From Gemmatimonadota bacterium (lineage in GTDB: Bacteria; Gemmatimonadota; Gemmatimonadetes; Gemmatimonadales; GWC2-71-9): a stretch of 64,000 nucleotides of DNA. Position 1 is the first letter of the stretch. Every line of letters begins with the position of its first letter. Where the stretch lies: the NCBI GenBank assembly GCA_003223395.1, contig QHUZ01000040.1, forward strand, positions 5,381 to 69,380. The letters run 5' to 3'. The notes under the pieces are model-generated. The model had not been told where the DNA came from. It made no database searches and saw only the letters and a list, made by a program, of their open reading frames with translations. Made by a program: the position numbers and the translations under genes. Positions 4,955-48,830 of the stretch are shown piece by piece.

Positions 4955-5545
4955 CTACATGGACTGGACGCCAAGCTGCAGCACGTCATCGACTTCGTGC
5001 GTCTCGCTCGTGTAGAACGGCTCGCCATAACGGCGCCGGATCAGGGATCCGTAGTGCGCCGCTTGAACCCGGATCAACTCGTACAGATCCTGCCCGGTAG
5101 GATGGATCTCTCCAGCGGCCTTCGCGCCGGTGAACTGTGATGCATAGCAGCGGACTGCCTCCATCTTCGTTTCGAACACCCCCGAAATATCCACGACGAA
5201 CGTCGGCTTCACGGGGTCCTCTCGATAGGCGAGCGCGTACAGCACCTTGAACGGCCGATGGGCCTCGCCCCCCTTGCCGGGCTCGTACTTGGCGAGTCCG
5301 GCCAGATAGCATGCATCGCGCGCCAGCTCGGAGGCGATTCGGTGATCGGGGTGTCGACCAACAGGGAAGGGCAGGATGACGACTCTCGGTCTGAGCTGGC
5401 GAATGAATGTCACGATCTCTTTTCTCGACGCGGCCTTCGCGAGTGTGCCGCCGCAGGTGAGTTCGACGTCGTCCCGATGCGCCGCGATCGCTAACAGGTC
5501 AACGGGTTGACCGTCCGGCCGACCGACCGTCGGACCGTCATTCAT
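4955..5545 (-). CDS. PIG-L/LmbE-family deacetylase (BshB1-like), unusually short
   Basis: 196 aa. It has VDLLAIAAHRDDVELTCGG (family motif AHPDD, but with Arg in place of Pro) and GRHPDH. The segment normally found between these motifs appears to be missing. The start overlaps the stop of the last permease by 8 nt. Confidence 0.6.
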   Translation of the reverse strand: MNDGPTVGRPDGQPVDLLAIAAHRDDVELTCGGTLAKAASRKEIVTFIRQLRPRVVILPFPVGRHPDHRIASELARDACYLAGLAKYEPGKGGEAHRPFKVLYALAYREDPVKPTFVVDISGVFETKMEAVRCYASQFTGAKAAGEIHPTGQDLYELIRVQAAHYGSLIRRRYGEPFYTSETHEVDDVLQLGVQSM

Positions 5546-6782
5546 ACCGCAGCGCCTCCACTGGGTCGAGTTTCGCCGCGCGGGCGGCAGGAGCGATTCC
5601 GAAGACCAGGCCCACGAGAATCGACGCGACGGTGGCGATCGCCGCTGGCACCACGGGGATCGTCGTGCTGAACGCGAGCAGTCGCTTCAACACTTCCCCG
5701 ACGCCCACGCCCAGCGCGATGCCGATGATGCCGCCGAGCAGCGTCAGCGTGGCCGCCTCGACGAGGAATTGCCACAGGATGGCGCGGCGCGTGGCGCCGA
5801 GGGCTTTGCGCAGGCCGATCTCCCGGGTTCGGCTCGTCACGGAAACCATCATGATCGCCATCACCCCGATGCCTCCCACCATCAGCGCGATGCTGGAGAG
5901 CACGAGCATCACGAAGAAGAACGCAAACGTCAGGCTGTCGAAGATACTCAGGACCTGATCGGAGGTGAGCAAATCGAACGTACTGGCGTCGCCGACGCGG
6001 AGCCCACGCAACCGGCGCAACGTGACCGTGGCAGCATCCATCGCGCGGCTGACGCTGATCTCCGGCTTTGGCTTCACGAGAATGATCAGGCTGTTCCACT
6101 CGTCGATGATGAAGCTGCGCCGCGCCGCCTCGAACGGCACTACCGCGGCGATCTCGGGCGCCCCCGGCACCTCGAAGATATTCGTGGGTCGTTGCCAGAC
6201 CCCGATGACCTTGAACGGATGCCCCCCGATCCGGATGACGCGGCCGAGCGGATTGACGGCGCCGAACAGCCGGTCGATGGTCCGCTGCTCCACAATCGCG
6301 ATCGGCTGACCACCGCGCAGCTCGGCCGCGGTGAACGAACGGCCGGACGAGATGCCGCCGCCGAGGATTTCCATAAAGCGGTCGTCGGCACCGAACACCC
6401 CGAGAATGCGCGTGTGATTTCCGCCGTACTCGAACCGCTGAAAGACCTGGGTCCAGATCGCGGCGTAGTGGATTTCGGGCAGTCGCGCGATCGCCGCGGC
6501 GTCCTGCGGGAGCAGTTTGGGTCGAATGCGCACCTCGCGCGGCACCGCGTCGGGGTTCACGCCGGTCGTGGAGAAATAGCGGAGCACGCGGAAGGTCGTC
6601 GGCCCGACGACCTCGAGTGTATTGACGATCTGTTCGCGGAAGCCGGCGACGATGGAGGCCATCGCCATGACCGTTGCGATGCCGATGACGACGCCGAGCA
6701 CCGTGAGCGCGGAGCGCAGCTTGTTGGCGCGCAGCTGATCGAGCGCAATGCGCCAACCCTCGCGGAGGGAGTGGAGTTTCAT
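5538..6782 (-). CDS. FtsX/MacB-type ABC permease, subtype A (third copy)
   Basis: 414 aa. N-terminal TM (ALTVLGVVIGIATVMAMA), about 230 aa of periplasmic domain, then three C-terminal TMs. Motifs GGIGVMAIMMVSVTSRTREIGLRKALGATRR and C-terminus DPVEALRYE. Confidence 0.85.
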   Translation of the reverse strand: MKLHSLREGWRIALDQLRANKLRSALTVLGVVIGIATVMAMASIVAGFREQIVNTLEVVGPTTFRVLRYFSTTGVNPDAVPREVRIRPKLLPQDAAAIARLPEIHYAAIWTQVFQRFEYGGNHTRILGVFGADDRFMEILGGGISSGRSFTAAELRGGQPIAIVEQRTIDRLFGAVNPLGRVIRIGGHPFKVIGVWQRPTNIFEVPGAPEIAAVVPFEAARRSFIIDEWNSLIILVKPKPEISVSRAMDAATVTLRRLRGLRVGDASTFDLLTSDQVLSIFDSLTFAFFFVMLVLSSIALMVGGIGVMAIMMVSVTSRTREIGLRKALGATRRAILWQFLVEAATLTLLGGIIGIALGVGVGEVLKRLLAFSTTIPVVPAAIATVASILVGLVFGIAPAARAAKLDPVEALRYE

Positions 6783-8027
<1,245 letters not shown>

Positions 8028-8037
8028 GGTCTACAAA

Positions 8038-9275
8038 CTACTCGTATCGGAGCGCCTCGACGGGATCCAGTCTCGCGGCCCGACTGGCGGGATACAAACC
8101 GAAGCCGATGCCGGTCAGCGCCGACGCGAGGAGCGCCGCGACGATTGACCAGAGCGGCACGTTGGCCGGGATGGGTGTGACACGCGAGATCAGGAATGCG
8201 AGCGCGCCGCCGCACAGCATGCCGACCGCACCGCCCACGAGCGTGAGGGTCGACGCTTCGACCAGGAACTGCCACAGGATGGCGCGGCGCGTCGCTCCCA
8301 GCGCCTTACGGACGCCGATCTCTCGCGTTCGCTCGGTCACCGAGATCATCATGATGGCGATCACCCCCACGCCGCCCACCATCAAGCCGATCGACGACAG
8401 CACCAGCATCACGAGGAAGAACATCCCCGTCACCTTGTTCCACGAGTCGAGCAGCTTGTCCTGGGTCACGATCGAGAAATTGTTTTCGTCGCTCGGCTTG
8501 AGCCCGCGGATCGAGCGCAGCGTCGCGACGACCTCGTCCATCGACTCCTGTTGGCTGTATTCGGGCGCCGGCGCGACGGCGAGCCGCATCCAGCCTTTGA
8601 AGTACGGCACGTGCTTGACGAACGCGCCGTGCGGAATGCCCACGAACGGCGGCGCCGCACCGCTGAACAGACTCGGCGGCTGCGCGTAGACACCGATGAC
8701 GGTGAACCGCGCGCCGGCGATGTGGATCGTCTGGCCGATCGGATCGCGCCCGCGAAACAGCTGATCCTCGAGCTTCCGATTGATCACGGCGACGGCGCTG
8801 TTGGAGAGGTCCTCGAGCCGAGTGAACGTGCGGCCGGGATACACGTCGCCGCCGTTCACCTCCACCCATTCCGCCGACAAGCCGGAGATGTTCACCGATT
8901 CGAGCCGCAGGGACCCGAACTCCACCGTCGCGGAGCTTTCCTCGCGGCGGGTCACATAACGGACCGACGGCAGCAGGCGGATCCGGTCGGCCTCGAGCTC
9001 GTTGATCGCGGGATTGCGGCGCCACGGGCTGCTTTCGTCCGAGCCGTCCGAGACGTTGATGCCGGCCTGGAAGAAGCGCCATACCAAGAACGTCCGCGGC
9101 GCGATCGACTCGAACACACCGGCGACGCTCTTGTTGATCCCGCTGATCATCGCGGCCATCAGCATCACGACCATCACGCCGATGGCGACGCCCAGAATCG
9201 TGAGCGCCGCACGCGCCTTGCTGGCGCGAAGCGACGCGAGCGCAATCCCTACGCCTTCGAAGAGGCTTCCCCCCG

Positions 9276-9279
<4 letters not shown>
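8038..9279 (-). CDS. FtsX/MacB-type ABC permease, subtype A (second copy)
   Basis: Track ORF 8038..9393. The preferred start is ATG 9279 (MTGGSLFEGVGIALASLRASKARAALTILGVAIGV), in an ATGA overlap with the upstream stop. Motifs GGVGVIAIMMISVTERTREIGVRKALGATRR and DPVEALRYE. Confidence 0.85.
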
Positions 9280-10520
<1,241 letters not shown>

Positions 10521-10522
10521 CG

Positions 10523-11752
10523 TTACTCGTATCGCAGCGCCTCGACAGGATCCAGGCGCGCCGCCTTGCTTGCGGGATAAATCCCGAACAGCAATCCGGT
10601 GACGGCGGCCGCGATCAACGCGGTGATGATAGAGCCGACGGGCACGTACGCCGGGACGGGCGTGAAGTTGTGCAGCACAAAGGCGATGATCCAGCCGATG
10701 ACCATGCCGACGATGCCGCCGACGAGTGTCAGCGTCGCGGCTTCGACGAGGAACTGCCACATGACTTCTCGCTTCGTCGCGCCGAGCGCCTTGCGCACGC
10801 CGATCTCCCGCGTCCGCTCGGTCACGGAAATCATCATAATGGCGACGACGCCGATTCCTCCGACGATCAACCCCACCATCGACAGCGCGACCATGAGTGC
10901 ACGGGCCACGAAGGTAAACTGGTCGATCGCCTTCACGTACACCTCCTGCGTGACCGCATCGAAGTTGTTCTTCTGTCCGGGTCTGAGCCCGCGCATCGTC
11001 CGCATCGCCATGGTCACATCATCGATGGCGTGCTGGGTCGACACCGAGTCTTGCGGAACCACGAACATGTCCATCCAGCCGGGCCAGTACCGCAGGTCCT
11101 TTTGGAAGGTGCCGTGGGGCATCATGACCTCGGGCCGATCGCCATCGCCGAACATCCGGGGCGGGGGATTGTAGACTCCGACCACGTCGTACGGCAGCCC
11201 GCCGATCTTGATGCGACGATTCATCGGGTCGCGCTGCCCGAACAGGTTTTCGGCCAGCTTGCTGTTGATGACCGCGACGTGGGCGTTGGATGCATCCTCG
11301 AGATGTGTGAACGAGCGGCCCGGCTCGATCAGCCCGCCTTCGATCTTCGGCCAATCGGCGTTCCGCCCGCGGATCCCGATCGCGGCCATCCGGCGGCCTT
11401 CGAATTCGATGTCGGCAGACGTGTACTCATCCACCACGACGAAGGCGACGGTCGGGAGCAGCGCCAACCGATTCGCTTCATCGACCGTGATCGGGGGACG
11501 GCGCCGCCAGGGATTCGGATCTTCCGGATCCTCGTCGTTCTGGCCACCCCAGTAGCGCCCGACCCAGAACGTCTTCGGGCCGAGCGACGCCAGCATATCC
11601 GTGACGCCCTTGTTGAAGCCGCTGATCAGGGCACCGATCACCATGACGACCGTGACACCGATCGCGACGCCCAGGATCGTCAGTGCGGCGCGCATCTTGT
11701 GCGCCCGCAGGGACACCAGAGCAATGCCGACGCCTTCGAACAGTGCGGTCAT
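10523..11752 (-). CDS. FtsX/MacB-type ABC permease, subtype A (first copy)
   Basis: 409 aa, starting MTALFEGVGIALVSLRAHKMRAALTILGVAIGV. Motifs GGIGVVAIMMISVTERTREIGVRKALGATKR and DPVEALRYE. Confidence 0.85.
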   Translation of the reverse strand: MTALFEGVGIALVSLRAHKMRAALTILGVAIGVTVVMVIGALISGFNKGVTDMLASLGPKTFWVGRYWGGQNDEDPEDPNPWRRRPPITVDEANRLALLPTVAFVVVDEYTSADIEFEGRRMAAIGIRGRNADWPKIEGGLIEPGRSFTHLEDASNAHVAVINSKLAENLFGQRDPMNRRIKIGGLPYDVVGVYNPPPRMFGDGDRPEVMMPHGTFQKDLRYWPGWMDMFVVPQDSVSTQHAIDDVTMAMRTMRGLRPGQKNNFDAVTQEVYVKAIDQFTFVARALMVALSMVGLIVGGIGVVAIMMISVTERTREIGVRKALGATKREVMWQFLVEAATLTLVGGIVGMVIGWIIAFVLHNFTPVPAYVPVGSIITALIAAAVTGLLFGIYPASKAARLDPVEALRYE

Positions 11753-11755
11753 GCG

Positions 11756-12994
11756 TTACTCCTGCCGCAGGGCGGTGATCGGATCGAGCTTCGCGGCCCG
11801 GCTCGCGGGATACACGCCGGCGACGACGCCGACTCCGGCTCCCATGATAACTCCGAGCACGACGGATGCAGGCGATACACTCGCCGGTAGCGGCGAGATC
11901 TTGTTGATCAGGATCGTGAGCCCGATCCCTGCGAAAATGCCGATTGCCGCGCCGACGGTCGCGATGGCGGTCGACTCGGCCAGGAACTGGCGCAGCACGT
12001 CCCGGCGCCGGGCGCCAAGCGATTTGCGCAGCCCGATTTCGCGCGTGCGTTCCGCGACCGCCATGAGCATGATGTTCATGATCACGATCCCACCGATGAC
12101 GAGCGACACCACCACGATCCCGGGAATGACGGTGACGAGAATGCGGCTGATCCCCGCCCAGAAGCGCTGCACGCCCTCGGAGGTATCGAGGACGAAGTTG
12201 TTGTCCTGCTTGGGCCGAAGATGGCGCCGGCCGCGCATGATCCCCTCGGCCTGCGACATCGCTTCCCGCATTTCGGGGTCCGAGCGTGCCTTGACGAGGA
12301 AGGCATCGAGAATGCCGGGTGGATTCACCAGGTTTTGCGCCGGTGAAAGGGCCGGGACAACGACGAAGCGGTCGAGGGGAAATCCGAGGATGCTGCCCTG
12401 ATGCTCCACGACACCGATGACGCGGTAGGGAACGCCGCCGATTCGCACACTCTTGCCGAGTGGCGTGCGGTCGACGAACAGCCGTTTGGCCACGGCATCG
12501 CCGAGTACGGCGACCGGAGCGCCCGAGCGATTCTCTTCGCCCGTGAACGGCCGGCCCATCGCGATGCCCAGATTCTTGATGTCGAAGTACCGCTCGCTCG
12601 CGGTGGTCAGCTCGATGTCGCGCGCTTCCTTATTGCCGTACGACACCGTGACTTGATCGCTCGACTGCCAGGCGGTCATCACGGGGACGGTGAGGCCCTC
12701 GCTGATCGCTTCGGCGTCGCTGAAGCGGATCCGCGGCCGCCGCGCCCATGCGCGCCACACCGAGTCGGGGACGTTCGGTGTGAACATCGGCCGGCGCCGC
12801 AGCTGGAAGGTGTTCACGCCGTAGAGCGTCTGCGCAAACTTCTCCGTCATGTAGCGGTTCACGCCATTCGCGATGGACCACGCGGCGATGAGCGACGCAA
12901 CGCCGATGAAGACGCCGAGCAGCGAGAAGCCGCTCTTCAGCTTCTGCGCCCGGATCGTTTGAATCGCAAGACGGAAGGCTTCGAAAAACGGCAC
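11756..12994 (-). CDS. FtsX/MacB-type ABC permease, subtype B (first copy)
   Basis: Track ORF 11756..13036. The preferred start is GTG 12994 (VPFFEAFRLAIQTIRAQKLKSGFS), 1 nt after the ATPase stop. Motifs GGIVIMNIMLMAVAERTREIGLRKSLGA and DPITALRQE. Confidence 0.8.
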   Translation of the reverse strand: MPFFEAFRLAIQTIRAQKLKSGFSLLGVFIGVASLIAAWSIANGVNRYMTEKFAQTLYGVNTFQLRRRPMFTPNVPDSVWRAWARRPRIRFSDAEAISEGLTVPVMTAWQSSDQVTVSYGNKEARDIELTTASERYFDIKNLGIAMGRPFTGEENRSGAPVAVLGDAVAKRLFVDRTPLGKSVRIGGVPYRVIGVVEHQGSILGFPLDRFVVVPALSPAQNLVNPPGILDAFLVKARSDPEMREAMSQAEGIMRGRRHLRPKQDNNFVLDTSEGVQRFWAGISRILVTVIPGIVVVSLVIGGIVIMNIMLMAVAERTREIGLRKSLGARRRDVLRQFLAESTAIATVGAAIGIFAGIGLTILINKISPLPASVSPASVVLGVIMGAGVGVVAGVYPASRAAKLDPITALRQE

Positions 12995-12995
12995 G

Positions 12996-13723
<728 letters not shown>

Positions 13724-13727
<4 letters not shown>

Positions 13728-15046
13728 GAGCGCCGCCGGCTGGTCGTGTCGCCTGATTCGCGGCTCGGACGCACGCGTGCCCCTTCCTTCAGATCGCGGA
13801 TCGCTTGATACGGTCCCGCGACGATCGTGTCGCCCTGATGCACGCCGTCCACGACCTCGAAATGCTCCTCACCCGCGATTCCCACTTTCACCGGGTGGAA
13901 GGTCGCGACCCCGTTGTGCACGAGGAACACGCCTTCCGTTTCCTTCTTGTTTGCTCCGCCCTTGTGGCTCGTATCGCTCCGCGTGGGCGTGGCCGCTTCC
14001 GCGGTGTTCCCGCCGCGCGCCGGCCGTTGCTCGGTGGACACGGGGGTGTTCTCGCGCACGGTCAGCGCGATAATCGGAATGGCCAGCGCCTGCTTGCGCG
14101 TGTCGGTGACGATGCGGGCGGTGGCCGACAAGTCGGGGCGCACTTCCGTCGGCGGATTGGACAGCGTGATCTCGACTTCATAATCGACCGCGCGGTCGCT
14201 CTGCGCGCCGCCGACCGCCGAGGCGGCCGTCAGGATTGCGCTGTTGGAGACCTTCGTGACCCGGCCCACGAACGTCGTGTCGGGGAACGCGTCGATCGTG
14301 ACCTCGACCGAATCGCCCAGATGCAGCCGCACGACGTCCGTCTCGTCCACCTGCACCTTGGTCTGGATGACCGAGAGGTCCGAGATCGTGAGCAGCAAAC
14401 CGGTCTCGCGCGAGAACGTGCCCGGCACCGCGACCTCGCCCTCTTCGACGGCCAGTCGCGTGACCCGCCCCGCCATCGGCGCGACCAGGTGTGTCTTGGC
14501 GAGTTGATCGCGTGCTTCCTGGTAGCCCGCGCGCGCCTGCTCGACCAGGTGCGTCGCCGCCGTCTGGTTTGCCTCGGCGATGTCGAACGCCGTCTGCGCC
14601 TGCTCGAGTTGTTCCTGCGAGATGAGATTCGGGTTCTGCTCGCGCAGCTCCTTGGTGCGCGCGAGCGCGCGCTGCGCCTGATCGCGCGAGGCCCGCGCCT
14701 GCACAGCGCCGGCCTGAGCCGACGACATTCCCGCGTTGGCACGCTGCAGATTCGCCTCGTAGATCGTGGGATCGATCTGGAGCAGGAATTGCCCCTTCTG
14801 GACCAGGTCGCCTTCGCGCACCGCGATCCGCGTGATGCGGCCGGTGATGTCGGCGCTGATGTCCACTTTCTTCTTGGGCTGAATCTTCCCGCTGGCGGTG
14901 ACGGCGGCGACGAGGTCGCGGCGTCCGACCTGCTCGAACCGCACCTCGATCCCCTTCTCCCGTTTGGCACTGGCACTCACCATCACCAGGACGATCAGGA
15001 GAACGGCCCCTCCACCTCCCAACAGCACCTTGTTCCGCTTAGACAT
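13724..15046 (-). CDS. Periplasmic adaptor (membrane fusion protein, MacA/HlyD family)
   Basis: 440 aa. N-terminal anchor [19 protein letters not shown], a lipoyl-like segment, and a long coiled-coil ([16 protein letters not shown]...[15 protein letters not shown]). The stop forms an ATGA overlap with the ATPase start. Confidence 0.85.
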
Positions 15047-15065
15047 GGCGGCTCGATCCTCTCGG

Positions 15066-16565
15066 TTAACGCAAGCTGCGGCCGACGGCTGCTTCCAATG
15101 CCGCCAGGGCCTTGTGATAGTCGTACGTCGCGTTCACTGCATCGCTTTCGGCACGGAGCGAGGCGACCTGCGCGTCCAGCAGCTCGAAGAACGTCCCCGA
15201 CCCGACGCGGTAGCGCTCGGTGGCCAGCTGGAGCTGCTCGCGCGCGGCGCTGCGATTCGTATCCTGCAAACCGACGGTCCGGAACGCGGTTTGGAGCGTC
15301 AAAAATGCCTGGCTCACTTCCGTCTGCACCGCGAGGCCGCGCGCCCGCACCGACTCCTCGAGGTTACCGTGCTGTGCACGTGCAGTTGAGACACTCAGCT
15401 CGCGCGCAAAGTTGTTAAAGATCGGCAACGTCACCGTCAAACGGGCCTGGAACGGCTGCCGGGTGAAATTGAACGGGAACACGGAATTCCGGCTCCGCAG
15501 CGCCTGCTCGTCGGACGCGCCCCAGATGAAGCCGCTACAATCGTTCGGGGGCAGTCCCGCGTTCTGACGGATCGTGTTGTTGTCCTGGCATTCCGAGTAC
15601 TGGCCTGCGAAGGCGGCCTGCTGACTGAAAATGATCGGATCGACGTTGGTGAACTGCTGCGTGAAGCCCGACCAGCCCGCCGACAGCGACAGTGCCGGTC
15701 CGTAGCTGGACGTCGCGGCCCGCACGCTCCACGCGGCTGCACCCTCGCGCGCACGCAACGCCTTGAGCGCCGGGTTCTGTTGCTCCGCCATCGTGAGGAG
15801 ATCGGCGAGCTGCCACTCCGGCGTCTGCACGCTGAACGAGTCGGTGAGCTGCACCGCCGCCACGTCGAGCGGTGGCGTCACACCCATCTGCTCGAACAGC
15901 CGCAGCTTTTCTACGTTGACGAGTGTTTGGGCGCGCAGCAGGCCCACTTCCGCCTGCCCGCGTGCGACTTGCGCCTGGCGGACGTCGATCAGCGTCGCTT
16001 GGCCGACGCCGTAGCGTGCCTGCGCGAGCTTCAGGAACTCTTCGTTGCGCTGGAGCGTCTTCTGCGCCAGGTCAGCCTGCGCGCGCGCCTGCAGCACCGT
16101 CAGGTACTGCTGCTTGATGCCGGTGATGAGCGCGTTCTCGGCGCCGGCGACGTCGGCATCGGCGGCGCGCTGCTGGGCTTTGGCCAGTCCCGGTTGGGAT
16201 AGCGTGCTGCCCGACAGCTGCCACGACAGTCCCACATCATAGAATGAAGAGACGGTAGAGACGCTCTGCGTGAAGCTCGACGACAAGAACGTCTGCGAGC
16301 CGGGGCCTGTGTAGCTCATCCCCCCCGACGCGATGATCGACGGGATCAACAGGCTGGAGTACGCGCCCCGCACGCCCCAGGCCGCCGGGGCTAGGTTGTT
16401 CTGGGCCTGCCGGAACGCGGGGTTCTTTTCGCGCGCGACGGCGATGGCGTCGCTGAGCGACAGACCCGCCGTCGTCACCGGCTTCGTGGGAGTTGTGGGC
16501 TGCTGCGCAACTGCGACGGCGGCGGGGCCTAACAGCAGGCCTGCCACGAGCAACACCTGTTTCAT
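15066..16565 (-). CDS. TolC-family outer membrane efflux protein
   Basis: 499 aa. Signal peptide MKQVLLVAGLLLGPAAVAVAQQ. Internally repeated coiled-coil/beta layout with typical TolC N-terminal (LSLSDAIAVAREKNPAFRQA) and second-repeat (LLTMAEQQNPALKAL) motifs. Confidence 0.85.
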   Translation of the reverse strand: MKQVLLVAGLLLGPAAVAVAQQPTTPTKPVTTAGLSLSDAIAVAREKNPAFRQAQNNLAPAAWGVRGAYSSLLIPSIIASGGMSYTGPGSQTFLSSSFTQSVSTVSSFYDVGLSWQLSGSTLSQPGLAKAQQRAADADVAGAENALITGIKQQYLTVLQARAQADLAQKTLQRNEEFLKLAQARYGVGQATLIDVRQAQVARGQAEVGLLRAQTLVNVEKLRLFEQMGVTPPLDVAAVQLTDSFSVQTPEWQLADLLTMAEQQNPALKALRAREGAAAWSVRAATSSYGPALSLSAGWSGFTQQFTNVDPIIFSQQAAFAGQYSECQDNNTIRQNAGLPPNDCSGFIWGASDEQALRSRNSVFPFNFTRQPFQARLTVTLPIFNNFARELSVSTARAQHGNLEESVRARGLAVQTEVSQAFLTLQTAFRTVGLQDTNRSAAREQLQLATERYRVGSGTFFELLDAQVASLRAESDAVNATYDYHKALAALEAAVGRSLR

Positions 16566-16674
16566 GGTCGTCCTTGAAAAGATATGTCGTGAGGTCGAAG
16601 CGCCCTACGCGCGAGTAGCGACAGCGGTTTCGGCCTGCGACAACAACCTAGTCGGGAGGCCAAGCACAGCAAGG

Positions 16675-17349
16675 TCAGCTGCCGGCGAGGCGCTCGACGA
16701 CGAGGTGTCGGGAGGGGATGTCGACCTTCATGAGACGCCCAGCTTCATCCAGCCAGAGATTGACCGTACCCTGACCCTCCGTGCCCACCACGATGTGCCG
16801 CAGGCGGGCGGGGTCTCGGTTGAGGGTCGTGGACGTCATTCCCAGGTCGTGGATCTGGACGACATCACGCCGCAGGCCCCGCGGGAAAATGGCTGTCAAC
16901 GTGCCAGGCTCGGACGCGCCACGCCATGCCGCGAAGACGTAAAGTGCAAACACCGAATCGTCGAGCACCGCCGTTCGCTGCCCGGTCGGGAATTCCCGGG
17001 CGCGCTCGGTGGCGCGCGCGACGAGCCGCACGGTGAACCGTCCCCGGCCCAGCTCGCCGAGAATGCGCGAGGGTTGACGGGGATCGGCGACGTCGTACTG
17101 CAGCGTGGCAGGCATCGTGTCGCTGTTCACTTCGAGGATGGGCGCGAGGACCACCACCGGCCGCGCGCGATCGTAGCGGATCGTCGTAGCCAGTGTCCAA
17201 CCGGCATCGCCGCGCGACAATCGCCCGTGCGTCAAACGGAACGACTCGCGCGCAACCTCGAGTGTATCGATGCGCACGACGAGGACGCCCTCGTCCACGG
17301 GCGATCCTGCGACTTGCAGCAGCGTAAGGGCGAGCAGACATGCGCTCAT
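16675..17349 (-). CDS. Hypothetical secreted protein
   Basis: 224 aa with a short hydrophobic N-terminus (MSACLLALTLLQVAG). It overlaps the upstream creatininase stop by 4 nt. No family recognised. Confidence 0.45.
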   Translation of the reverse strand: MSACLLALTLLQVAGSPVDEGVLVVRIDTLEVARESFRLTHGRLSRGDAGWTLATTIRYDRARPVVVLAPILEVNSDTMPATLQYDVADPRQPSRILGELGRGRFTVRLVARATERAREFPTGQRTAVLDDSVFALYVFAAWRGASEPGTLTAIFPRGLRRDVVQIHDLGMTSTTLNRDPARLRHIVVGTEGQGTVNLWLDEAGRLMKVDIPSRHLVVERLAGS

Positions 17350-29588: not shown

Positions 29589-32500
29589 TCAATCCGCCGC
29601 TGCGGGCTCCTCGACCGGACGACGCTTGGCCCGCCGTCCGAACCAATGCTGCAGCGCGTCGAGGTAGGTGTAGACGACCGGCGTCACGTACAGCGTAATG
29701 AGCTGCGAGAACGCCAACCCGCCTACCACGGCCAATCCCAGCGGCCGCCGCGACTCGCCCCCGGCGCCCCAGCCAATCGCGATCGGCAGCGTGCCCATGA
29801 GCGCCGACATCGTCGTCATCATGATGGGCCGGAAGCGCACGCTGCACGCCTCGATGATCGCCTCGCGCGGTGACTTGCCCTCCGTGCGCTCCGCCTCGAG
29901 GGCGAAGTCGATCATCATGATCGCGTTCTTCTTCACGAGTCCCACCAGCATGATGATGCCCACGAACGCGTAGATACTCAGCTCAGTGCGGAAGATGAAG
30001 AGCGTCAGCAACGCGCCAAATCCGGCGAACGGCAGGCCGGACAGGATCGTCAGCGGGTGAATGAAGCTCTCGTACAGAATTCCCAGCACGATGTAGATCA
30101 CCACGATGGCGAGCAGCAGCAGGAAGAAGAGACCCTGTTGGCTGGACTGGAACGCCTGCGCCGTGCCGGAGAATCCCGTGCTGATGGTCGACGGCAGTGT
30201 CTGCCGCGCGGCCTTCTGGACGTCGTTGACCGCCGTGCCCAGCGACACTCCCGGCGGCAGGTTGAACGACAGCGTCACCGAGGGGAGCTGCCCGCTGTGG
30301 TTCACGCTCAACGGCCCGACATCGTTGGACGCCGAGGCGACCGACGTGAGCGGAATCAGCCTACCGCTTTGCGAGCGGAGGTAGAGCAGCCCGAGCGCCG
30401 ACGGATCGCGCTGGTATTCCGGCAGCAGCTCGAGGATCACCCAGTACTGGTTGTTCGGCGTGTAGATCGTCGAGACCTGGCGCGAGCCGTAGGCGTCGTA
30501 CAATCCCTGCTCGATCTGCTGCACGGTCACGCCCAGGCTCGTGGCGCGATCGCGGTCGATCTGGACGCTGACCTGCGGATTCTTGATCTGCAGGTCGGTC
30601 GTGACATCCTGCAGGGTGGGGATGCCGCGCAGGACGCGCTCCAGCTTGGCGGCGTTCTCATACAGCGCGTCGATGTCGGCGCTCTGCAGGGTGAATTGGT
30701 AGAGGGTCTTGGTCGGGCGGCCGCCGATGCGGATCGACTGTGGCAGCGACAGGTAGGTTCGGATCCCGGTCACCGAATTGAGTTTGGCGTTCAGCTCGCG
30801 AACCACCTGGTCGGCCGGGAGACGCTCACCACGCGGTTTCAGACGAATGCTCAGGCGTCCCTGGTTCATGGTGCCGCCACCGACCGTCGACATGTAGTGC
30901 GCGATGTTCGGGTCGCGCTGCACGATGTCCGCGACGGCGAGCTGATGGTCGCGCATGTTCTCGAACGAGGCGCCCTCGAGCGTCTCGGTGGTGCCCTGAA
31001 TCTGTCCCTGGTCTTCCGTCGGGATGAACCCTTTCGGCACGAACGGATAGAGGAGCACGGTCGCCACGAGAATGCCGAGCGAGAACAGCATCGTCGCCGG
31101 CCGGTGATCCATGACCCAGCCGAGCGTCCGCTCGTAGAACGCCAGGCTGCGCTGGTACACCCGCTCCGTCGCCTCGTAGAAGCGGCCGTGTTTCGCTTCT
31201 TTGGGCGGCCGGAGAAACCGGCTGCACAGCATCGGCGTGAGCGTGAGGGAGACGAAGCCGGAGACGAGAATCGCCACGCCGATTGTCACGGCAAATTCGT
31301 GGAACAGGCGGCCCAGGATGCCGCCCATGAGCAGCACGGGGATGAACACCGCGGTCAGCGACAGCGTCATCGACAGAATCGTGAAACCGATTTCGCGCGC
31401 GCCGTCGAGCGCGGCCTCCATCGCCCGTTTTCCTTTTTCCATGTGCCGGACGATGTTCTCCAACATCACGATCGCGTCATCGACGACGAATCCGACGGAC
31501 AGCGTGAGCGCCATCAGCGACAGATTGTCGAGACTGTAGCCCATCAGGTACATCACCGTGAACGTGCCGATGATGGAGAAGGGGAGCGCCAGACTCGGAA
31601 TGACCGTCGCCGAGAGGTTCTTCAGAAACAGGAAGATGACCATGACGACGAGGCACAGCGTGACGAGCAGCGTCAGCTGGACGTCGTTCACCGACTGTCG
31701 GATCGAGACCGACCGGTCGTAGAGCGTATTCACCTGGACGGATGCCGGTAGCTGGCCCGACAGCGCGGTGACGGTGGCCTTCACCGCGTCGGCAACCTCG
31801 ACGGTATTCGTCCCGGGCTGGCGCTGGATCGCCAGCACGATCGCGCGCCTGCCGTCGTACCAGCTTGCGTTGCGCGAGTCCTGGACGTCATCGAGCACGC
31901 GGGCGACGTCCTGCAGGCGCACGGGCGCGCCGTTCTGGTAGGTCACGGCGAGCTGCCGGAATTCCGGGGCGCTCGAGATCGAGCCGTCCGCGAGCACGGT
32001 GTACGCGCGCTGGGGGCCCCACAGCGTCCCGGTCGGCAGATTCGGATTGCCGGCCGACACCGCCGCCGTCACTTCATCCAGCCCGATGCCGCGCGCCTGC
32101 AGTGCCTTCGGATCTACCTGAATGCGCACCGCGTACTTCGCCGACCCGAACACCTGCACCTGCGCGACCCCGTCCACGGTGGACAGCCGCTGCGCGAGAA
32201 AGGTTTCGGCCTGCTCGTCGAGCGTCGACAGCGGCATCGTCGCGGACGTCAGCGCGAGATAGAGGATCGGCGAATCCGCCGGGTTCGACTTGTTGTACGA
32301 GGGCGGCTGAATGCCGGGCGGGAGCTGTCGCAACGTTTTGGAGATCGCGGCCTGCACGTCCTGCGCGGCCGCATCGATCTGCCGCGACAGCGAAAACGTG
32401 AGCGTGATGTTGCTGCTGCCCATGGTGCTCGACGACGTCATCGCGTCGATCCCGGCGATCGTCGAGAACTGCTTCTCAAGCGGGGTCGCGACGGCGGCCG

Positions 32501-32678
32501 CCATCGTCTGCGGGCTCGCGCCCGGCAAGCCGGCTGAGACGGTGATCGTGGGGAAATCGACGTTCGGCAGATCGCTCACGGGCAGCAGGCGATACGCCAT
32601 CAGCCCGAACATGAGAATCCCGAACATCACCAGCGTCGTGGCGACGGGACGGCGGATGAACAGCCCGGAGATGTTCAC
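29589..32678 (-). CDS. RND efflux transporter permease (AcrB/MdtB/MdtC-type, HAE1-like)
   Basis: 1029 aa, starting MNISGLFIRRPVATTLVMFGILMFG. 12-TM, two-large-loop architecture typical of the ACR_tran family. Confidence 0.92.
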   Translation of the reverse strand: MNISGLFIRRPVATTLVMFGILMFGLMAYRLLPVSDLPNVDFPTITVSAGLPGASPQTMAAAVATPLEKQFSTIAGIDAMTSSSTMGSSNITLTFSLSRQIDAAAQDVQAAISKTLRQLPPGIQPPSYNKSNPADSPILYLALTSATMPLSTLDEQAETFLAQRLSTVDGVAQVQVFGSAKYAVRIQVDPKALQARGIGLDEVTAAVSAGNPNLPTGTLWGPQRAYTVLADGSISSAPEFRQLAVTYQNGAPVRLQDVARVLDDVQDSRNASWYDGRRAIVLAIQRQPGTNTVEVADAVKATVTALSGQLPASVQVNTLYDRSVSIRQSVNDVQLTLLVTLCLVVMVIFLFLKNLSATVIPSLALPFSIIGTFTVMYLMGYSLDNLSLMALTLSVGFVVDDAIVMLENIVRHMEKGKRAMEAALDGAREIGFTILSMTLSLTAVFIPVLLMGGILGRLFHEFAVTIGVAILVSGFVSLTLTPMLCSRFLRPPKEAKHGRFYEATERVYQRSLAFYERTLGWVMDHRPATMLFSLGILVATVLLYPFVPKGFIPTEDQGQIQGTTETLEGASFENMRDHQLAVADIVQRDPNIAHYMSTVGGGTMNQGRLSIRLKPRGERLPADQVVRELNAKLNSVTGIRTYLSLPQSIRIGGRPTKTLYQFTLQSADIDALYENAAKLERVLRGIPTLQDVTTDLQIKNPQVSVQIDRDRATSLGVTVQQIEQGLYDAYGSRQVSTIYTPNNQYWVILELLPEYQRDPSALGLLYLRSQSGRLIPLTSVASASNDVGPLSVNHSGQLPSVTLSFNLPPGVSLGTAVNDVQKAARQTLPSTISTGFSGTAQAFQSSQQGLFFLLLLAIVVIYIVLGILYESFIHPLTILSGLPFAGFGALLTLFIFRTELSIYAFVGIIMLVGLVKKNAIMMIDFALEAERTEGKSPREAIIEACSVRFRPIMMTTMSALMGTLPIAIGWGAGGESRRPLGLAVVGGLAFSQLITLYVTPVVYTYLDALQHWFGRRAKRRPVEEPAAAD

Positions 32679-33826
32679 CGCGGTCCGTTCCCCGAGGCGG
32701 TGGGGTCTGCGCCGCCGCCGGCGGACTCGGTCGTCGGACCGCCGCGAATATCAACCTTGGAATTCGGCGTCAACCGCAGCTGGCCGTCGGTCACGACCAG
32801 CGCGCCCGCGGGCACACCGGCGACGACGCTGAGACTGTCGAGCGTGCGCTCGACGGTGACCGGTTGCGTCGCGGCGGTGCCGTCGTTGGTCACGACGAAC
32901 ACATAGGTGCCCTGCTGGCCTTGCATCACGGCCTGGCTCGGAACGACGACCGCGTCGTTCTGGACGCCGAGGACGAGCGTGATGCGGACGAACTCACCGG
33001 GCCACAGGCCGCCGTCACGATTCTGGAAACGGGCCTTGAGCAGCACGGTCCCGGTGGACGTGTCGACCTGATTGTCGACGAACGAGAGAATGCCTTGGAT
33101 GGACGACGCGGAGTCGCGTGCCGGCATCGCGATCGCGGCGAGCTGTTGACCAGCGCGCTGCCGGATCGCAGGCAGGCTGATCGCGGGAACGGGGAAGCGC
33201 ACGAGGATCGGGCGCATCTGCACGATCGAGACCAGCGGATCGTTCCCCGCGCGGACGAGGTTGCCCTCATGGAGGAGCAACCGTCCCGTGCGGCCACCGA
33301 TCGGCGCGCGGACCGTCGCGTACTCGAGGTTCAGCCGGGCGATTGCCGCCGCTGCCGAATCGGAGCGCACCGCGGCGTAGGCCGCGTCGGCCGTCGACTG
33401 CTTTGCCTCGTAATCTTCCTGCGTCACCGTGTTCGTTGCGGCGAGAGTCTTGTAGCGCGCGGCTTCGCGTGCGCCGCTTACTGCCTGCGTGAGATCGCGG
33501 AGCAGCGCTCCCTCGGCCTGCTGCAACGCGGCGCGGTAGGGACGCGGATCGATCTCGAACAGGATTTGGCCGGCCGCGACTTCGTCGCCTTCGGCGAAGT
33601 TCACGTGGAGGATCGTCCCGTTCACCTGCGGCAAGACGTCCACCGAACGGATCGGCTCTACGGTGCCGGTGGCCTCCAGCTCGTAGGGAAGCGAGCGGCG
33701 CTCGACGCGGGCGACGCTGACAGGGACTTTGGAAACGCCACCGCCCCGGCTCGGGCCACACCCGACCGTCGCGGCGAGCGCTATCGCCGGTACAAGGGTT
33801 CGGAAAGTCACGACATCTATACGCAT
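32675..33826 (-). CDS. RND efflux periplasmic adaptor (membrane fusion lipoprotein)
   Basis: 383 aa with lipobox ALAATVGC and HlyD_D23-type layout. The stop forms an ATGA overlap with the pump start. Confidence 0.85.
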   Translation of the reverse strand: MRIDVVTFRTLVPAIALAATVGCGPSRGGGVSKVPVSVARVERRSLPYELEATGTVEPIRSVDVLPQVNGTILHVNFAEGDEVAAGQILFEIDPRPYRAALQQAEGALLRDLTQAVSGAREAARYKTLAATNTVTQEDYEAKQSTADAAYAAVRSDSAAAAIARLNLEYATVRAPIGGRTGRLLLHEGNLVRAGNDPLVSIVQMRPILVRFPVPAISLPAIRQRAGQQLAAIAMPARDSASSIQGILSFVDNQVDTSTGTVLLKARFQNRDGGLWPGEFVRITLVLGVQNDAVVVPSQAVMQGQQGTYVFVVTNDGTAATQPVTVERTLDSLSVVAGVPAGALVVTDGQLRLTPNSKVDIRGGPTTESAGGGADPTASGNGPR

Positions 33827-48654: not shown

Positions 48655-48830
48655 CGGCGGCAGTACCGGAGGAGTAGACTAGGCTTACAACTGAAGACTC
48701 GTGGTCATTTGCCGCGTATTGCCGCCACGTTAAACAAGGTGCTAAAAAGCGAACTCGCCCGCGGCTTTATTAGTCCGGGCGACGGTCGTTTTAGGAATCG
48801 CTTTCTCGCGGCGCTTACGCCGGAGGTGCG

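Follow-up and report, generated by a model that had tools for sequence, protein, structure and literature searches.

To our knowledge, the structural and mechanistic understanding of tripartite MacB-type pumps is confined to homodimers. MacB works by mechanotransmission ("bellows"), and LolCE is the established heterodimer of separate MacB-type units (PMC5985334). In LolCDE, the sole known heterodimer of this fold and the only characterized one of type VII, the stand-alone permeases LolC and LolE join a LolD dimer, and neither an adaptor nor a duct takes part. Legionella LitOPAI has its genes in the order duct, adaptor, ATPase, and permease (PMC11559062). Several uncharacterized clusters in P. 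gingivalis (PG0679-0685, PG1662-1667, and PG0280-0283) contain a duct and/or adaptor, one ATPase, and 2–3 stand-alone permeases (PMC12094164, Table 1), and the ADOP arrays of Acidobacteria and Psychroflexus torquis hold up to ten two-unit paralogues beside a few ATP-binding genes (PMC3914696); both are genomic precedents for many permease modules per ATPase. Here, we analyzed a locus with six permease genes in a 64-kb stretch of DNA from a soil bacterium of the Gemmatimonadales, phylum Gemmatimonadota (the whole stretch is referred to as the window).

Gene content of the exporter locus

The locus (positions 5538–16565, minus strand) encodes a TolC-family protein, a MacA-like adaptor, a single stand-alone ABC ATPase, and six intact MacB-type permeases that lack a nucleotide-binding domain (NBD). 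A preliminary description had reported the same composition; the nine ORFs, all on the minus strand, lie where it had placed them, and Pfam agrees with its assignments. The features are, in order of transcription:

16566–16674, minus strand: 109-nt gap upstream of tolC, possible promoter region (sequence reading)
15066–16565, minus strand: TolC-family outer-membrane factor, 499 amino acids, first gene of the exporter block (Pfam OEP)
13724–15046, minus strand: periplasmic adaptor (membrane-fusion protein, MacA-like), 440 amino acids (TIGR01730; Pfam HlyD_D23, HlyD_3, and Biotin_lipoyl_2)
12996–13727, minus strand: stand-alone ABC ATPase (MacB/LolD-type NBD), 243 amino acids (Pfam ABC_tran)
11756–12994, minus strand: permease B1, class B, proximal pair, 412 amino acids (MacB_PCD and FtsX)
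10523–11752, minus strand: permease A1, class A, partner of B1, 409 amino acids (MacB_PCD and FtsX)
9276–10520, minus strand: permease B2, class B, second proximal-type pair, 414 amino acids (MacB_PCD and FtsX)
8038–9279, minus strand: permease A2, class A, partner of B2, 413 amino acids (MacB_PCD and FtsX)
6783–8027, minus strand: permease B3, class B, distal pair, 414 amino acids (MacB_PCD and FtsX)
5538–6782, minus strand: permease A3, class A, partner of B3, 414 amino acids (MacB_PCD and FtsX)
4955–5545, minus strand: bshB1-like deacetylase gene (NCBIfam BshB1, 9.5e-44)

From tolC to A3, successive genes are separated by 19, -4, 1, 3, 2, -4, 10, and 0 nt. The GTG start of the ATPase gene overlaps the adaptor stop codon by 4 nt, the GTG of B1 lies 1 nt past the ATPase stop codon, the ATG of A1 lies 3 nt past the B1 stop codon, the start of A2 overlaps the B2 stop codon by 4 nt, and the ATG of A3 follows the B3 stop codon immediately and in the same frame. 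The only sizeable noncoding stretch of the block is the gap at 16566–16674, in which no sigma-70-like site was found. Upstream of this gap, orf224 and a creatininase gene are on the same strand as the exporter, and transcription may start either in the gap or further upstream. Terminator-like matches inside the block are not enriched (4 versus 6.4 expected from shuffled sequence). At the other end, the bshB1-like gene overlaps the 3' end of A3 by 8 nt and is found downstream of the permease array in 51 of 78 related loci; it is possibly cotranscribed with the array and lies outside the exporter proper. The block probably forms one polycistronic operon, which is part of the main reading given below.

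The TolC-family protein matches Pfam OEP in two stretches (6.9e-50) and reaches 120.8 bits with the NCBIfam TolC subfamily model, under the 225-bit cut-off; tolC holds the same position in most related loci. The adaptor, which contains HlyD_D23, HlyD_3, and Biotin_lipoyl_2 domains, belongs to the RND_mfp family (TIGR01730, 146.8 bits, above the 94.9 cut-off) and scores 126.8 bits with the MacA equivalog, under the cut-off of 342. The ATPase (Pfam ABC_tran, 4.5e-36) is most similar among NCBIfam models to the NBD part of MacB (8e-81), with LolD second. Its translation contains Walker [10 protein letters not shown], the signature LSGGQ, and the Walker B motif ILLADEPT, and it is the sole match of an NBD HMM within the 64-kb window (12996–13727). 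At the gene level, both the adaptor and the outer-membrane factor of a MacAB-TolC-type system are present in the same tightly packed operon.

Two permease classes and the B-A pair

The six permeases (409–414 amino acids) belong to two classes in strict B-A-B-A-B-A alternation. Each consists of MacB_PCD and FtsX domains without an NBD (PF12704, 1e-29 to 1e-36; PF02687, 1e-19 to 1e-25; all above gathering scores), which places all six in the MacB/FtsX (type VII ABC) superfamily. Their closest solved relatives, aligned over the full permease length, are MacB and Spr0695 (B1 with MacB 5lil, 3.9e-52; A1 with MacB 5gko, 5e-48), and a protein identical to A1 is on record for a Gemmatimonadetes MAG. 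The AlphaFold2 model of B1, of moderate confidence (pLDDT 73.8), has MacB 5gko_A as its top fold match (E 1.4e-24). Its helices (20-58, 272-315, 317-325, 330-366, 375-401, and 405-410) follow the MacB/FtsX layout of four transmembrane (TM) helices with long TM1/TM2 stalks, a coupling helix after TM2, and a short C-terminal helix, and the arrangement of its periplasmic domain is that of MacB as well.

Sequence identity is 41–60% within class B and 40–55% within class A, versus 31–35% between the classes, in agreement with the alternation of two subtypes noticed earlier. B1 and B2 are 60% identical, A1 and A2 55%, and B3 is 41% identical to both B1 and B2. Class B genes start with GTG and class A genes with ATG, and the TM2 motif is GGIVIMNIML in B1 and GGIGVVAIMM in A1. 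The start codons, motifs, and C-termini quoted in the preliminary description are all present, except that B2 reads SFLDA rather than xFxEA at its N-terminus. Its statement that the periplasmic domains diverge while the TM parts are conserved also stands (21–53% identity among the permeases versus 38–69% for the TM2-TM4 part). TM1 identity is 27–37% between classes and 44–74% within a class, the proximal and distal pairs being the most different. The coupling helix ERTREIGxRK is conserved across all six.

HMMs built for the two classes told about 320 permease ORFs from 78 related loci apart, with a margin of no less than about 90 bits for every ORF and >100 bits for those of full length. In view of this separation, and of the (BA)n order in all 46 complete Gemmatimonadales arrays, the alternation is not due to chance. 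We defined a B-A paired permease module, an uncurated definition of our own, as a class B gene (TM2 GGIV) directly followed on the same strand by a class A gene (TM2 GGIG); the window carries three such modules. A survey of this repeat, proposed earlier as a check, found the unit conserved and the copy number changing only in whole pairs: the 46 complete arrays comprise 5 BA, 24 BABA, and 17 BABABA, none of them odd-numbered or out of order, and the smallest array is always one B plus one A. One further locus (L026) has four pairs. Within Gemmatimonadales, every A gene has a B gene in front of it (144/144), and an A gene comes directly after all but one of the B genes (136/137). The array neighborhood is syntenic and of housekeeping type, and five complete arrays have no ATPase gene.

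The B-like-then-A-like order was also detected in other phyla, Acidobacteriota and Eisenbacteria among them, where the pair is often an orphan; B precedes A in nearly every locus across phyla by three independent sampling routes, and the module definition holds in most loci from other phyla. In Acidobacteriota, most pairs have no adaptor, TolC, or ATPase gene within 10 kb, contig permitting, and B-A pairs are also present in Heliobacteriaceae MAGs. Many pairs from other phyla have no nearby ATPase gene and, together with the arrays that have none, they indicate that the ATPase can be supplied in trans, that is, shared. On the other hand, a few loci from other phyla (L088 and L141) have three undifferentiated permease genes in tandem, which shows that MacB-type permeases can stand in tandem without forming B-A pairs. 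Apparent fusions of B and A in the databases proved to be frameshift or assembly artifacts and provide no "Rosetta-stone" support for pairing. A tree rooted on single-permease Bacteroidota genes splits at the root into A and B (bootstrap 77% and 72.5%), a cross-phylum split that is only moderately supported and comes from neighbor-joining, as do all trees here. The B-A pair is much older than the window locus. A single TM2 residue distinguishes the classes: all B sequences (100%) have V here (GGIV), whereas 98% of A sequences and the outgroups have G, so that GGIG is shared by class A and the single-permease relatives. In MacB, the dimer interface includes TM2 (PMC5673888).

Phylogenetic analysis of the six permeases gave the two clades of three members that had been anticipated, with the same ((1,2),3) topology in each. 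The A tree mirrors the B tree, both dividing into a proximal and a distal subclade; B2 falls within the proximal B subclade, B3 and A3 within the distal B and A subclades, and a distal B is always in the last pair of arrays with two or three pairs. Because the two trees mirror each other, the B-A pair is the unit of duplication. The A and B distance matrices correlate with r = 0.969 for adjacent partners and 0.20 when partners are swapped within the locus. Adjacent partners covary in residual dN (r = 0.78, 0.98 for A2-B2, and 0.79), whereas members of different pairs do not, in 18 phylogenetically non-independent comparisons. This covariation could reflect shared local history, either recombination or, in more distant loci, paralogue replacement. 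Mirrored trees would also be expected from tandem duplication of a two-gene segment even without heterodimerization, so the argument for heterodimers rests on the long-term, strictly paired retention of the two genes.

All six permease genes are under purifying selection, the divergent periplasmic domains included. Compared with close orthologues, dN/dS is 0.04–0.17 (B1 0.08–0.15, B2 0.07–0.17, and A3 0.04–0.17), and none of the copies is a pseudogene, a possibility that had been raised earlier. The periplasmic domains (dN/dS 0.07–0.13) are constrained as strongly as the TM parts. Since they are constrained and yet only 21–53% identical between paralogues, the copies fit specialized rather than redundant permeases.

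Possible assembly of the exporter and alternative explanations

The most plausible reading, to which we give a probability of roughly 0.6, is that the locus encodes a tripartite MacAB-TolC-like (type VII ABC) exporter in which three alternative B-A heterodimers would use a common ATPase, adaptor, and duct. The ancestral Gemmatimonadales locus may have carried one proximal B-A pair and one distal B-A pair, and tandem duplication of the proximal pair would have produced the three pairs in the lineage of the window. The inner-membrane permease would be a B-A heterodimer in the style of LolC-LolE instead of a homodimer. B1A1, B2A2, and B3A3 would each assemble from adjacent, cognate partners with a dimer of the single ATPase via the coupling helix ERTREIGxRK, and each would dock beneath the same adaptor hexamer and TolC duct. 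If transport is outward and follows the MacB mechanism, ATP binding would zip the stalk helices of TM1 and TM2 and push substrate from the periplasm into the duct above. Most of the difference between the pairs is in the periplasmic domains, and the pairs may thus offer three asymmetric cavities for different substrates on shared machinery. As a counterpoint, three periplasmic heads that have diverged strongly would all need to match a single adaptor. Overall, the earlier interpretation of the locus is partly supported, all the comparative checks that it had suggested having turned out in its favor.

A different possibility is that pairing is promiscuous, any B joining any A to give up to nine complexes as a combinatorial toolkit. 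The near-identical coupling helices and conserved TM2/TM3 cores of all six permeases, the same V-versus-G signature in TM2 of all three pairs, and cotranslation from one tightly packed operon would all allow this. However, evolutionary rates covary specifically between adjacent partners, the mirror-tree correlation is partner specific (0.97 versus 0.20), and the difference in TM1 between and within classes leaves room for pair-specific interfaces. We consider free pairing unlikely, though still conceivable. Six homodimeric pumps of the MacB/Spr0695/LitI style on one ATPase, adaptor, and duct, with the alternation as a relic of duplication, seem less probable again. Every solved close relative (MacB, Spr0695) is homodimeric, single-permease T-M-N-P loci exist in Bacteroidota and as Legionella LitOPAI (PMC11559062), and class A retains the GGIG motif of the single-permease relatives. 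Independent A and B genes should nevertheless often lose one member, and unequal numbers occur in 0/46 complete arrays; moreover, the order is B then A at nearly every sampled locus across phyla, the smallest system invariably consists of a single B with a single A, and in the interface helix TM2, class B has a derived residue that does not vary.

It is also conceivable, with the smallest likelihood of these alternatives, that some pairs bypass the TolC duct and act as extractors or mechanotransducers like LolCDE, YbbAP, or FtsEX; the locus would then group type VII machines of different function that have just the ATPase in common. The mostly orphan pairs of Acidobacteriota and those of Heliobacteriaceae MAGs imply that the module has no intrinsic need for an outer-membrane duct, and the conserved housekeeping neighborhood would fit a core envelope function. 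In Gemmatimonadales, however, the pairs always share an operon with the adaptor and TolC, and the permeases are far nearer to MacB than to LolC/E, YbbP, or FtsX.

Beyond the three-pair exporter, a wider joint reading may be offered tentatively, and we would rather bet against it. It combines a hitherto unrecognized, phylum-spanning, obligately heterodimeric class of MacB-type permeases, with V of B opposite G of A at the TM2 interface; a multi-head exporter in Gemmatimonadales, whose 2–4 heads would time-share ATPase, adaptor, and TolC; and a role in housekeeping envelope export (lipid, glycolipid, or lipoprotein) instead of drug resistance, the last part being suggested because the locus is syntenic and in the core genome. 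If the three-pair reading is true, the locus would represent a heterodimeric pump with an asymmetric periplasmic cavity, of which several versions would use the same machinery. A further gain would be a starting point for the function of thousands of unnamed "ABC transporter permease" pairs from Acidobacteriota and Gemmatimonadota, soil phyla that rank among the most abundant and the least understood. Until a substrate or a physical complex is shown, the practical value is modest.

Comparison with known systems

The permease of MacAB-TolC from E. coli, A. baumannii, and A. actinomycetemcomitans shares its fold with those of the window, namely four TM helices with a Porter/Sabre domain on the periplasmic side and a coupling helix that connects TM2 with TM3, and is the top match by sequence and fold; both systems have a MacA-type adaptor and a TolC-family duct, and we presume the bellows mechanism for the window exporter. 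In contrast, MacB has its NBD fused to the N-terminus of the permease and forms a homodimer, whereas the NBD of the window is a separate 243-amino-acid protein, the six permease genes form two alternating classes, and tolC lies inside the operon. The window permeases align only to MacB residues ~254-648 (155–184 bits, cut-off 966) and are thus not fused MacB proteins.

The stoichiometry of LolCDE is that proposed for each B-A pair, as suggested here by the strict co-occurrence and the coduplication of B and A. LolCDE has a single pair and passes its substrate to LolA, whereas the window has three pairs with an adaptor and TolC. The permeases fall outside the lolCE family (TIGR02212, 33–59 bits, cut-off 362) and score at most 42 bits with the LolC and LolE models; fold matches of B1 to LolE have ~15% identity.

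Legionella LitOPAI, Anabaena DevBCA-HgdD, and S. pneumoniae Spr0693-0695 resemble the window in having separate ATPase and permease genes together with an adaptor. The gene order of LitOPAI is identical to that of the window, and two Bacteroidota plasmid loci (L079 and L080) have the same duct-adaptor-ATPase-permease order. However, LitOPAI, DevBCA-HgdD, and Spr0693-0695 have a single permease gene, presumably homodimeric, with neither A/B classes nor tandem amplification. The window proteins also stay below the cut-offs of the models for the Dev glycolipid exporter (DevC ~20 versus 290 bits, DevA 197.6 versus 295.8, and DevB 67.8 versus 129).

The literature yielded no characterized equivalent or homologous locus that explains the permease multiplicity, in line with the preliminary description, which knew of no characterized system with this stoichiometry. 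Its claim of novelty is narrower than it appeared, since the B-A module is widespread and the P. gingivalis clusters and ADOP arrays had already been annotated or described. The comparison of the P. gingivalis clusters with the window covers gene content. ADOP is a fused two-unit polypeptide of about 800 amino acids, whereas the window permeases are single units of ~410 amino acids that score 110–159 bits with TIGR03434 (cut-off 622) and so lie outside that family. In ECF transporters, one energizing module is common to several S components. If the three-pair reading is true, the window exporter would likewise illustrate how a substrate range can be widened by exchanging permease pairs.

Organization of the operon and its two permease classes

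The exporter locus comprises nine minus-strand ORFs of the window, arranged head to tail.

Genes of the exporter locus (window coordinates, strand, description)
15066-16565, minus, TolC-family duct (Pfam OEP)
13724-15046, minus, membrane-fusion adaptor (Pfam HlyD-type domains; passes the generic NCBIfam RND_mfp model)
12996-13727, minus, stand-alone ABC ATPase (Pfam ABC_tran; nearest NCBIfam models MacB, NBD part, and LolD)
11756-12994, minus, permease B1 (Pfam MacB_PCD and FtsX, without NBD)
10523-11752, minus, permease A1 (same domains, without NBD)
9276-10520, minus, permease B2 (same domains, without NBD)
8038-9279, minus, permease A2 (same domains, without NBD)
6783-8027, minus, permease B3 (same domains, without NBD)
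5538-6782, minus, permease A3 (same domains, without NBD)

Successive genes are separated by 19, -4, 1, 3, 2, -4, 10, and 0 nt, and G+C content is uniform over the region. Sequence scans within the block returned promoter- and terminator-like matches at or below shuffle expectation. Judged from this layout, the nine genes are predicted to form a single tightly coupled operon. A bshB1-like gene overlaps A3 by 8 nt. Among NCBIfam models, all six permeases matched the last 400 residues of MacB and, more weakly, ADOP; none of the six reached the equivalog cut-offs of MacB, LolC/E, DevC, or ADOP.

Two further genes flank the operon, and two unrelated features were detected elsewhere in the window.

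Neighboring and other features (window coordinates, strand, description)
16675-17349, minus, orf224, an ORF of 224 aa, hydrophobic at its N-terminus, directly upstream of tolC
4955-5545, minus, bshB1-like deacetylase directly downstream of A3
29589-33826, minus, RND-type efflux pair unrelated to the MacB-type operon: adaptor-like gene (32675-33826, adaptor HMM match), then a 1029-aa ORF (29589-32678)
48700-48749, plus, SAM_alpha (SAM-II riboswitch, RF00521), just above threshold (Rfam 38.6 bits, gathering cut-off 36, E 3.7e-05)

No Pfam family matched orf224 in the window, and its orthologue at locus L280 (L280:4102-4800) has only a weak precomputed match to DUF6134. Its position upstream of the array is kept in 51 of 78 sampled Gemmatimonadales loci; it could be an accessory exporter component or a mere syntenic neighbor. 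In comparison with orthologues at two related loci (L002 and L007), the bshB1-like gene lacks 56 codons in frame, corresponding to about positions 41-83 of the BshB1 profile, and the remainder is 86% identical. This gap could reflect either a true in-frame deletion or an assembly collapse in the MAG.

A preliminary description had distinguished two alternating permease subtypes, B and A, and alignment and the identity matrix of the six permeases confirmed them, together with the motifs, start codons, and C-termini quoted there. The B proteins share 41-60% identity with one another and the A proteins 40-55%, compared with 31-35% across classes. Within each class, copies 1 and 2 resemble each other most, and copy 3 stands apart. 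Among the six proteins, identity is 21-53% in the periplasmic part and 38-69% over TM2-TM4. The classes are separated in all phyla by one TM2 column, about 11 residues above the coupling helix: B proteins carry GGIV (V in 100 of 100), whereas 98% of class A proteins carry GGIG, as do the single-permease outgroups. The coupling helix ERTREIGxRK is kept in both classes, suggesting that both should bind the same ATPase.

The B-A pair as the unit of array evolution

To place the window among its relatives, we scanned species-representative genomes with B1, and 78 Gemmatimonadales loci were found among the matches listed. Each locus scan covered up to 80-120 loci, mostly from MAGs, and the frequencies reported here hold for those samples. 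HMMs built from the three A and three B copies of the window assigned approximately 320 permease ORFs to one class or the other, each with a margin of at least about 90 bits; for full-length ORFs the margin exceeded 100 bits.

When ORFs were ordered by their 3' ends, Gemmatimonadales loci had the order duct-adaptor-ATPase-(B-A)n; apparent exceptions at L017, L026, and L030 proved to be an artefact of sorting stop-to-stop ORFs by start. In five complete arrays (L044, L046, L053, L068, and L072), and likewise at L280, the adaptor is followed by the first B without an intervening ATPase gene, implying that the ATPase must be encoded elsewhere in these genomes. B precedes A in 144 of 144 cases and A follows B in 136 of 137. 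Among the 46 arrays complete on both sides, there were 5 BA, 24 BABA, and 17 BABABA, and no odd-numbered or out-of-order array was present. The survey of the B-A repeat that the preliminary description had called for showed that Gemmatimonadales arrays vary in whole pairs. One sampled locus only (L026:4627-15951) has four B-A pairs; its pairs 2 and 3 lie about 1.3 kb apart, its contig ends inside the last A gene, and the extra pair falls in the proximal subclade described below. In about 50 of these loci, and also at L280, the surroundings are syntenic (histidine kinase, creatininase-like gene, orf224, array, bshB, iscS-like gene, and mnmA), indicating that the array grows and shrinks at a constant site in the core genome.

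A neighbor-joining tree of 297 full-length permeases (Kimura-corrected distances, rooted on two single-permease Bacteroidota genes) recovered A and B as reciprocally monophyletic, which bears out the two clades anticipated earlier. Each class splits in the same way into a proximal subclade (first pairs and, where n = 3, second pairs) and a distal one (always the last pair). This matching split implies that the ancestral state was two pairs and that the third pair of the window came from duplication of the proximal pair.

Distance matrices of A and B correlated strongly for adjacent partners (r = 0.969), compared with r = 0.20 (maximum 0.25 in 200 permutations) when partners were swapped within a locus. 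Selection was measured against 18 three-pair loci. All six genes had dN/dS of 0.04-0.17 in the closer comparisons, and residual dN, with locus and gene means removed, covaried within adjacent pairs (r = 0.78, 0.98, and 0.79); no covariation was seen between different pairs in these 18 loci. Among orthologues, constraint on the periplasmic domains (dN/dS 0.07-0.13) is as strong as that on the membrane parts, so that each paralogue appears to keep its own conserved head. Such conservation argues for specialization of the copies, and against decay or redundancy.

Distribution of the pair and apparent fusions in databases

Relatives in our first homologue search were all close, at least 77% identical and all but one at least 80%, and were uninformative about distribution. 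When 1.84 billion cluster representatives were then searched with a profile, 234,225 relatives were recovered; E was <= 1e-30 for 26,580, and only the closest of these were clearly A or B. A search with a distant A-like representative recovered at least 80 loci from Acidobacteriota (Pyrinomonadaceae, Blastocatellia, Terriglobia, and Bryobacteraceae), Eisenbacteria, Zixibacteria, and other groups, in which an A-like gene again follows a B-like one. The order in Pyrinomonadaceae is adaptor-ATPase-(B-A)x2, and many distant pairs stand alone as orphans: their fetched flanks (up to 10 kb on each side) contain neither adaptor nor ATPase genes. The root of the joint tree splits A from B with moderate bootstrap values (77% and 72.5%); outside Gemmatimonadales, 79 of 97 A members occupy even positions and 78 of 81 B members odd ones. 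A pattern scan with the B motif added at least 119 loci, and an A-like gene lies directly downstream in nearly all of those listed. One of them, L179, is an orphan B-A pair in the cultured acidobacterium Tunturibacter empetritectus M8US30.

The class-B motif GGIVIMNIML also turned up beyond Acidobacteriota and Gemmatimonadota, at three loci that may be mis-binned: L183 and L214 (Heliobacteriaceae/Heliomicrobium MAGs, Firmicutes), where an A-like gene follows, and L164 (Cloacimonadota), where two undifferentiated permease genes follow the ATPase without a clear B-A pair. In a plasmid collection, tblastn with B1 detected only single-permease loci of <35% identity, which served only as outgroups. 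Two of the plasmid loci, both from Bacteroidota, L079 (B. ovatus) and L080 (Chondrinema), have a duct-adaptor-ATPase-permease operon with a histidine kinase gene and a LytTR response regulator gene immediately after it, an order that suggests dedicated two-component control. Their kinase lies directly downstream, whereas Gemmatimonadales loci have a large divergent histidine kinase upstream instead.

Public collections contain many double permeases of 650-860 aa (e.g., database proteins P0011-P0013, P0089, P0321, P0323, P0327, P0332, and P0335). These are chimeras at motifs common to the paralogues, or frameshift read-through across the very short B-A junction. P0011-P0013 and P0089 were rejected as B+A or A+B fusions as their joins fall at shared motifs, marking assembly chimeras. 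A search with concatenated B1 and A1 gave 690-860-aa proteins with a class-B N-terminal and a class-A C-terminal half, rejected as frameshift artefacts whose junctions are R/P/G-rich out-of-frame stretches. At L280, on a 4.46-Mb contig with several frameshifts within one gene, the true B C-terminus and stop codon are visible in another frame. Such double entries could mislead surveys of domain architecture. Some class-B permeases are also called as fusions (P0346 and P0367, 637-651 aa; P0390, P0392, and P0407, 751-858 aa), joined either to an ABC ATPase domain at the N-terminus, the arrangement of canonical MacB, or to adaptor domains; considering the 1-nt ATPase-B junction in the window, these may again be frameshift artefacts. 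Two-unit ADOP proteins (P0121, P0174, P0184, P0258, L150, and L156) were rejected as fused B-A pairs: they are too distant, and neither class could be assigned to their halves.

A putative B-A heterodimer and its relation to known systems

The closest solved proteins, all of them homodimers, are MacB (5gko, 5nik, and 5lil) and Spr0695 (5xu1). B1 as modeled by AlphaFold2 (pLDDT 73.8) has the MacB layout and MacB as its best fold match, followed by LolE and LolC at about 15% identity. In MacB, the dimer interface is formed by TM1-TM3 (PMC5673888); on ATP binding, the TM helices zip up to give a four-helix bundle and the periplasmic domains, which the adaptor contacts, are closed (PMC5985334).

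An obligate B-A heterodimer that sits on an ATPase homodimer, like LolCDE, would best account for the long and strict co-retention of one B with one A. This reading, drawn from comparison of sequences, draws on the fixed gene order, duplication in whole pairs, co-divergence specific to partners, and an invariant, derived residue in an interface helix. In that case, three B-A heterodimers, differing in their periplasmic heads, would be encoded in the window and would use a common ATPase, adaptor, and duct. It is also possible that any A pairs promiscuously with any B, that the six permeases form six homodimers, or that the pairs act without the duct, but we rate each of these lower than the obligate heterodimer.

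In reviews, LolCE is the only heterodimer of separate MacB-type units listed (PMC5985334), and a multi-pair tripartite pump was not described in the reviews searched. Characterized split systems with a single permease are LitOPAI, which has the same gene order as the window operon (PMC11559062), DevBCA-HgdD, and Spr0693-5. Clusters in P. gingivalis contain two or three permease genes, namely PG0682-0684, PG1664/1665, and PG0280/0281, with one ATPase and an adaptor, and a TolC gene in two of three clusters; they have been tabulated as 'potential efflux systems' (PMC12094164) and otherwise appear in the literature mainly in expression and regulation studies. Tandem arrays have also been noted for fused ADOP permeases (PMC3914696). 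Thus, the type VII tripartite ABC exporter, heterodimeric permeases, and shared ATPases are already known; new, as far as the searched literature shows, are their combination, the A/B classes, and amplification in whole pairs.
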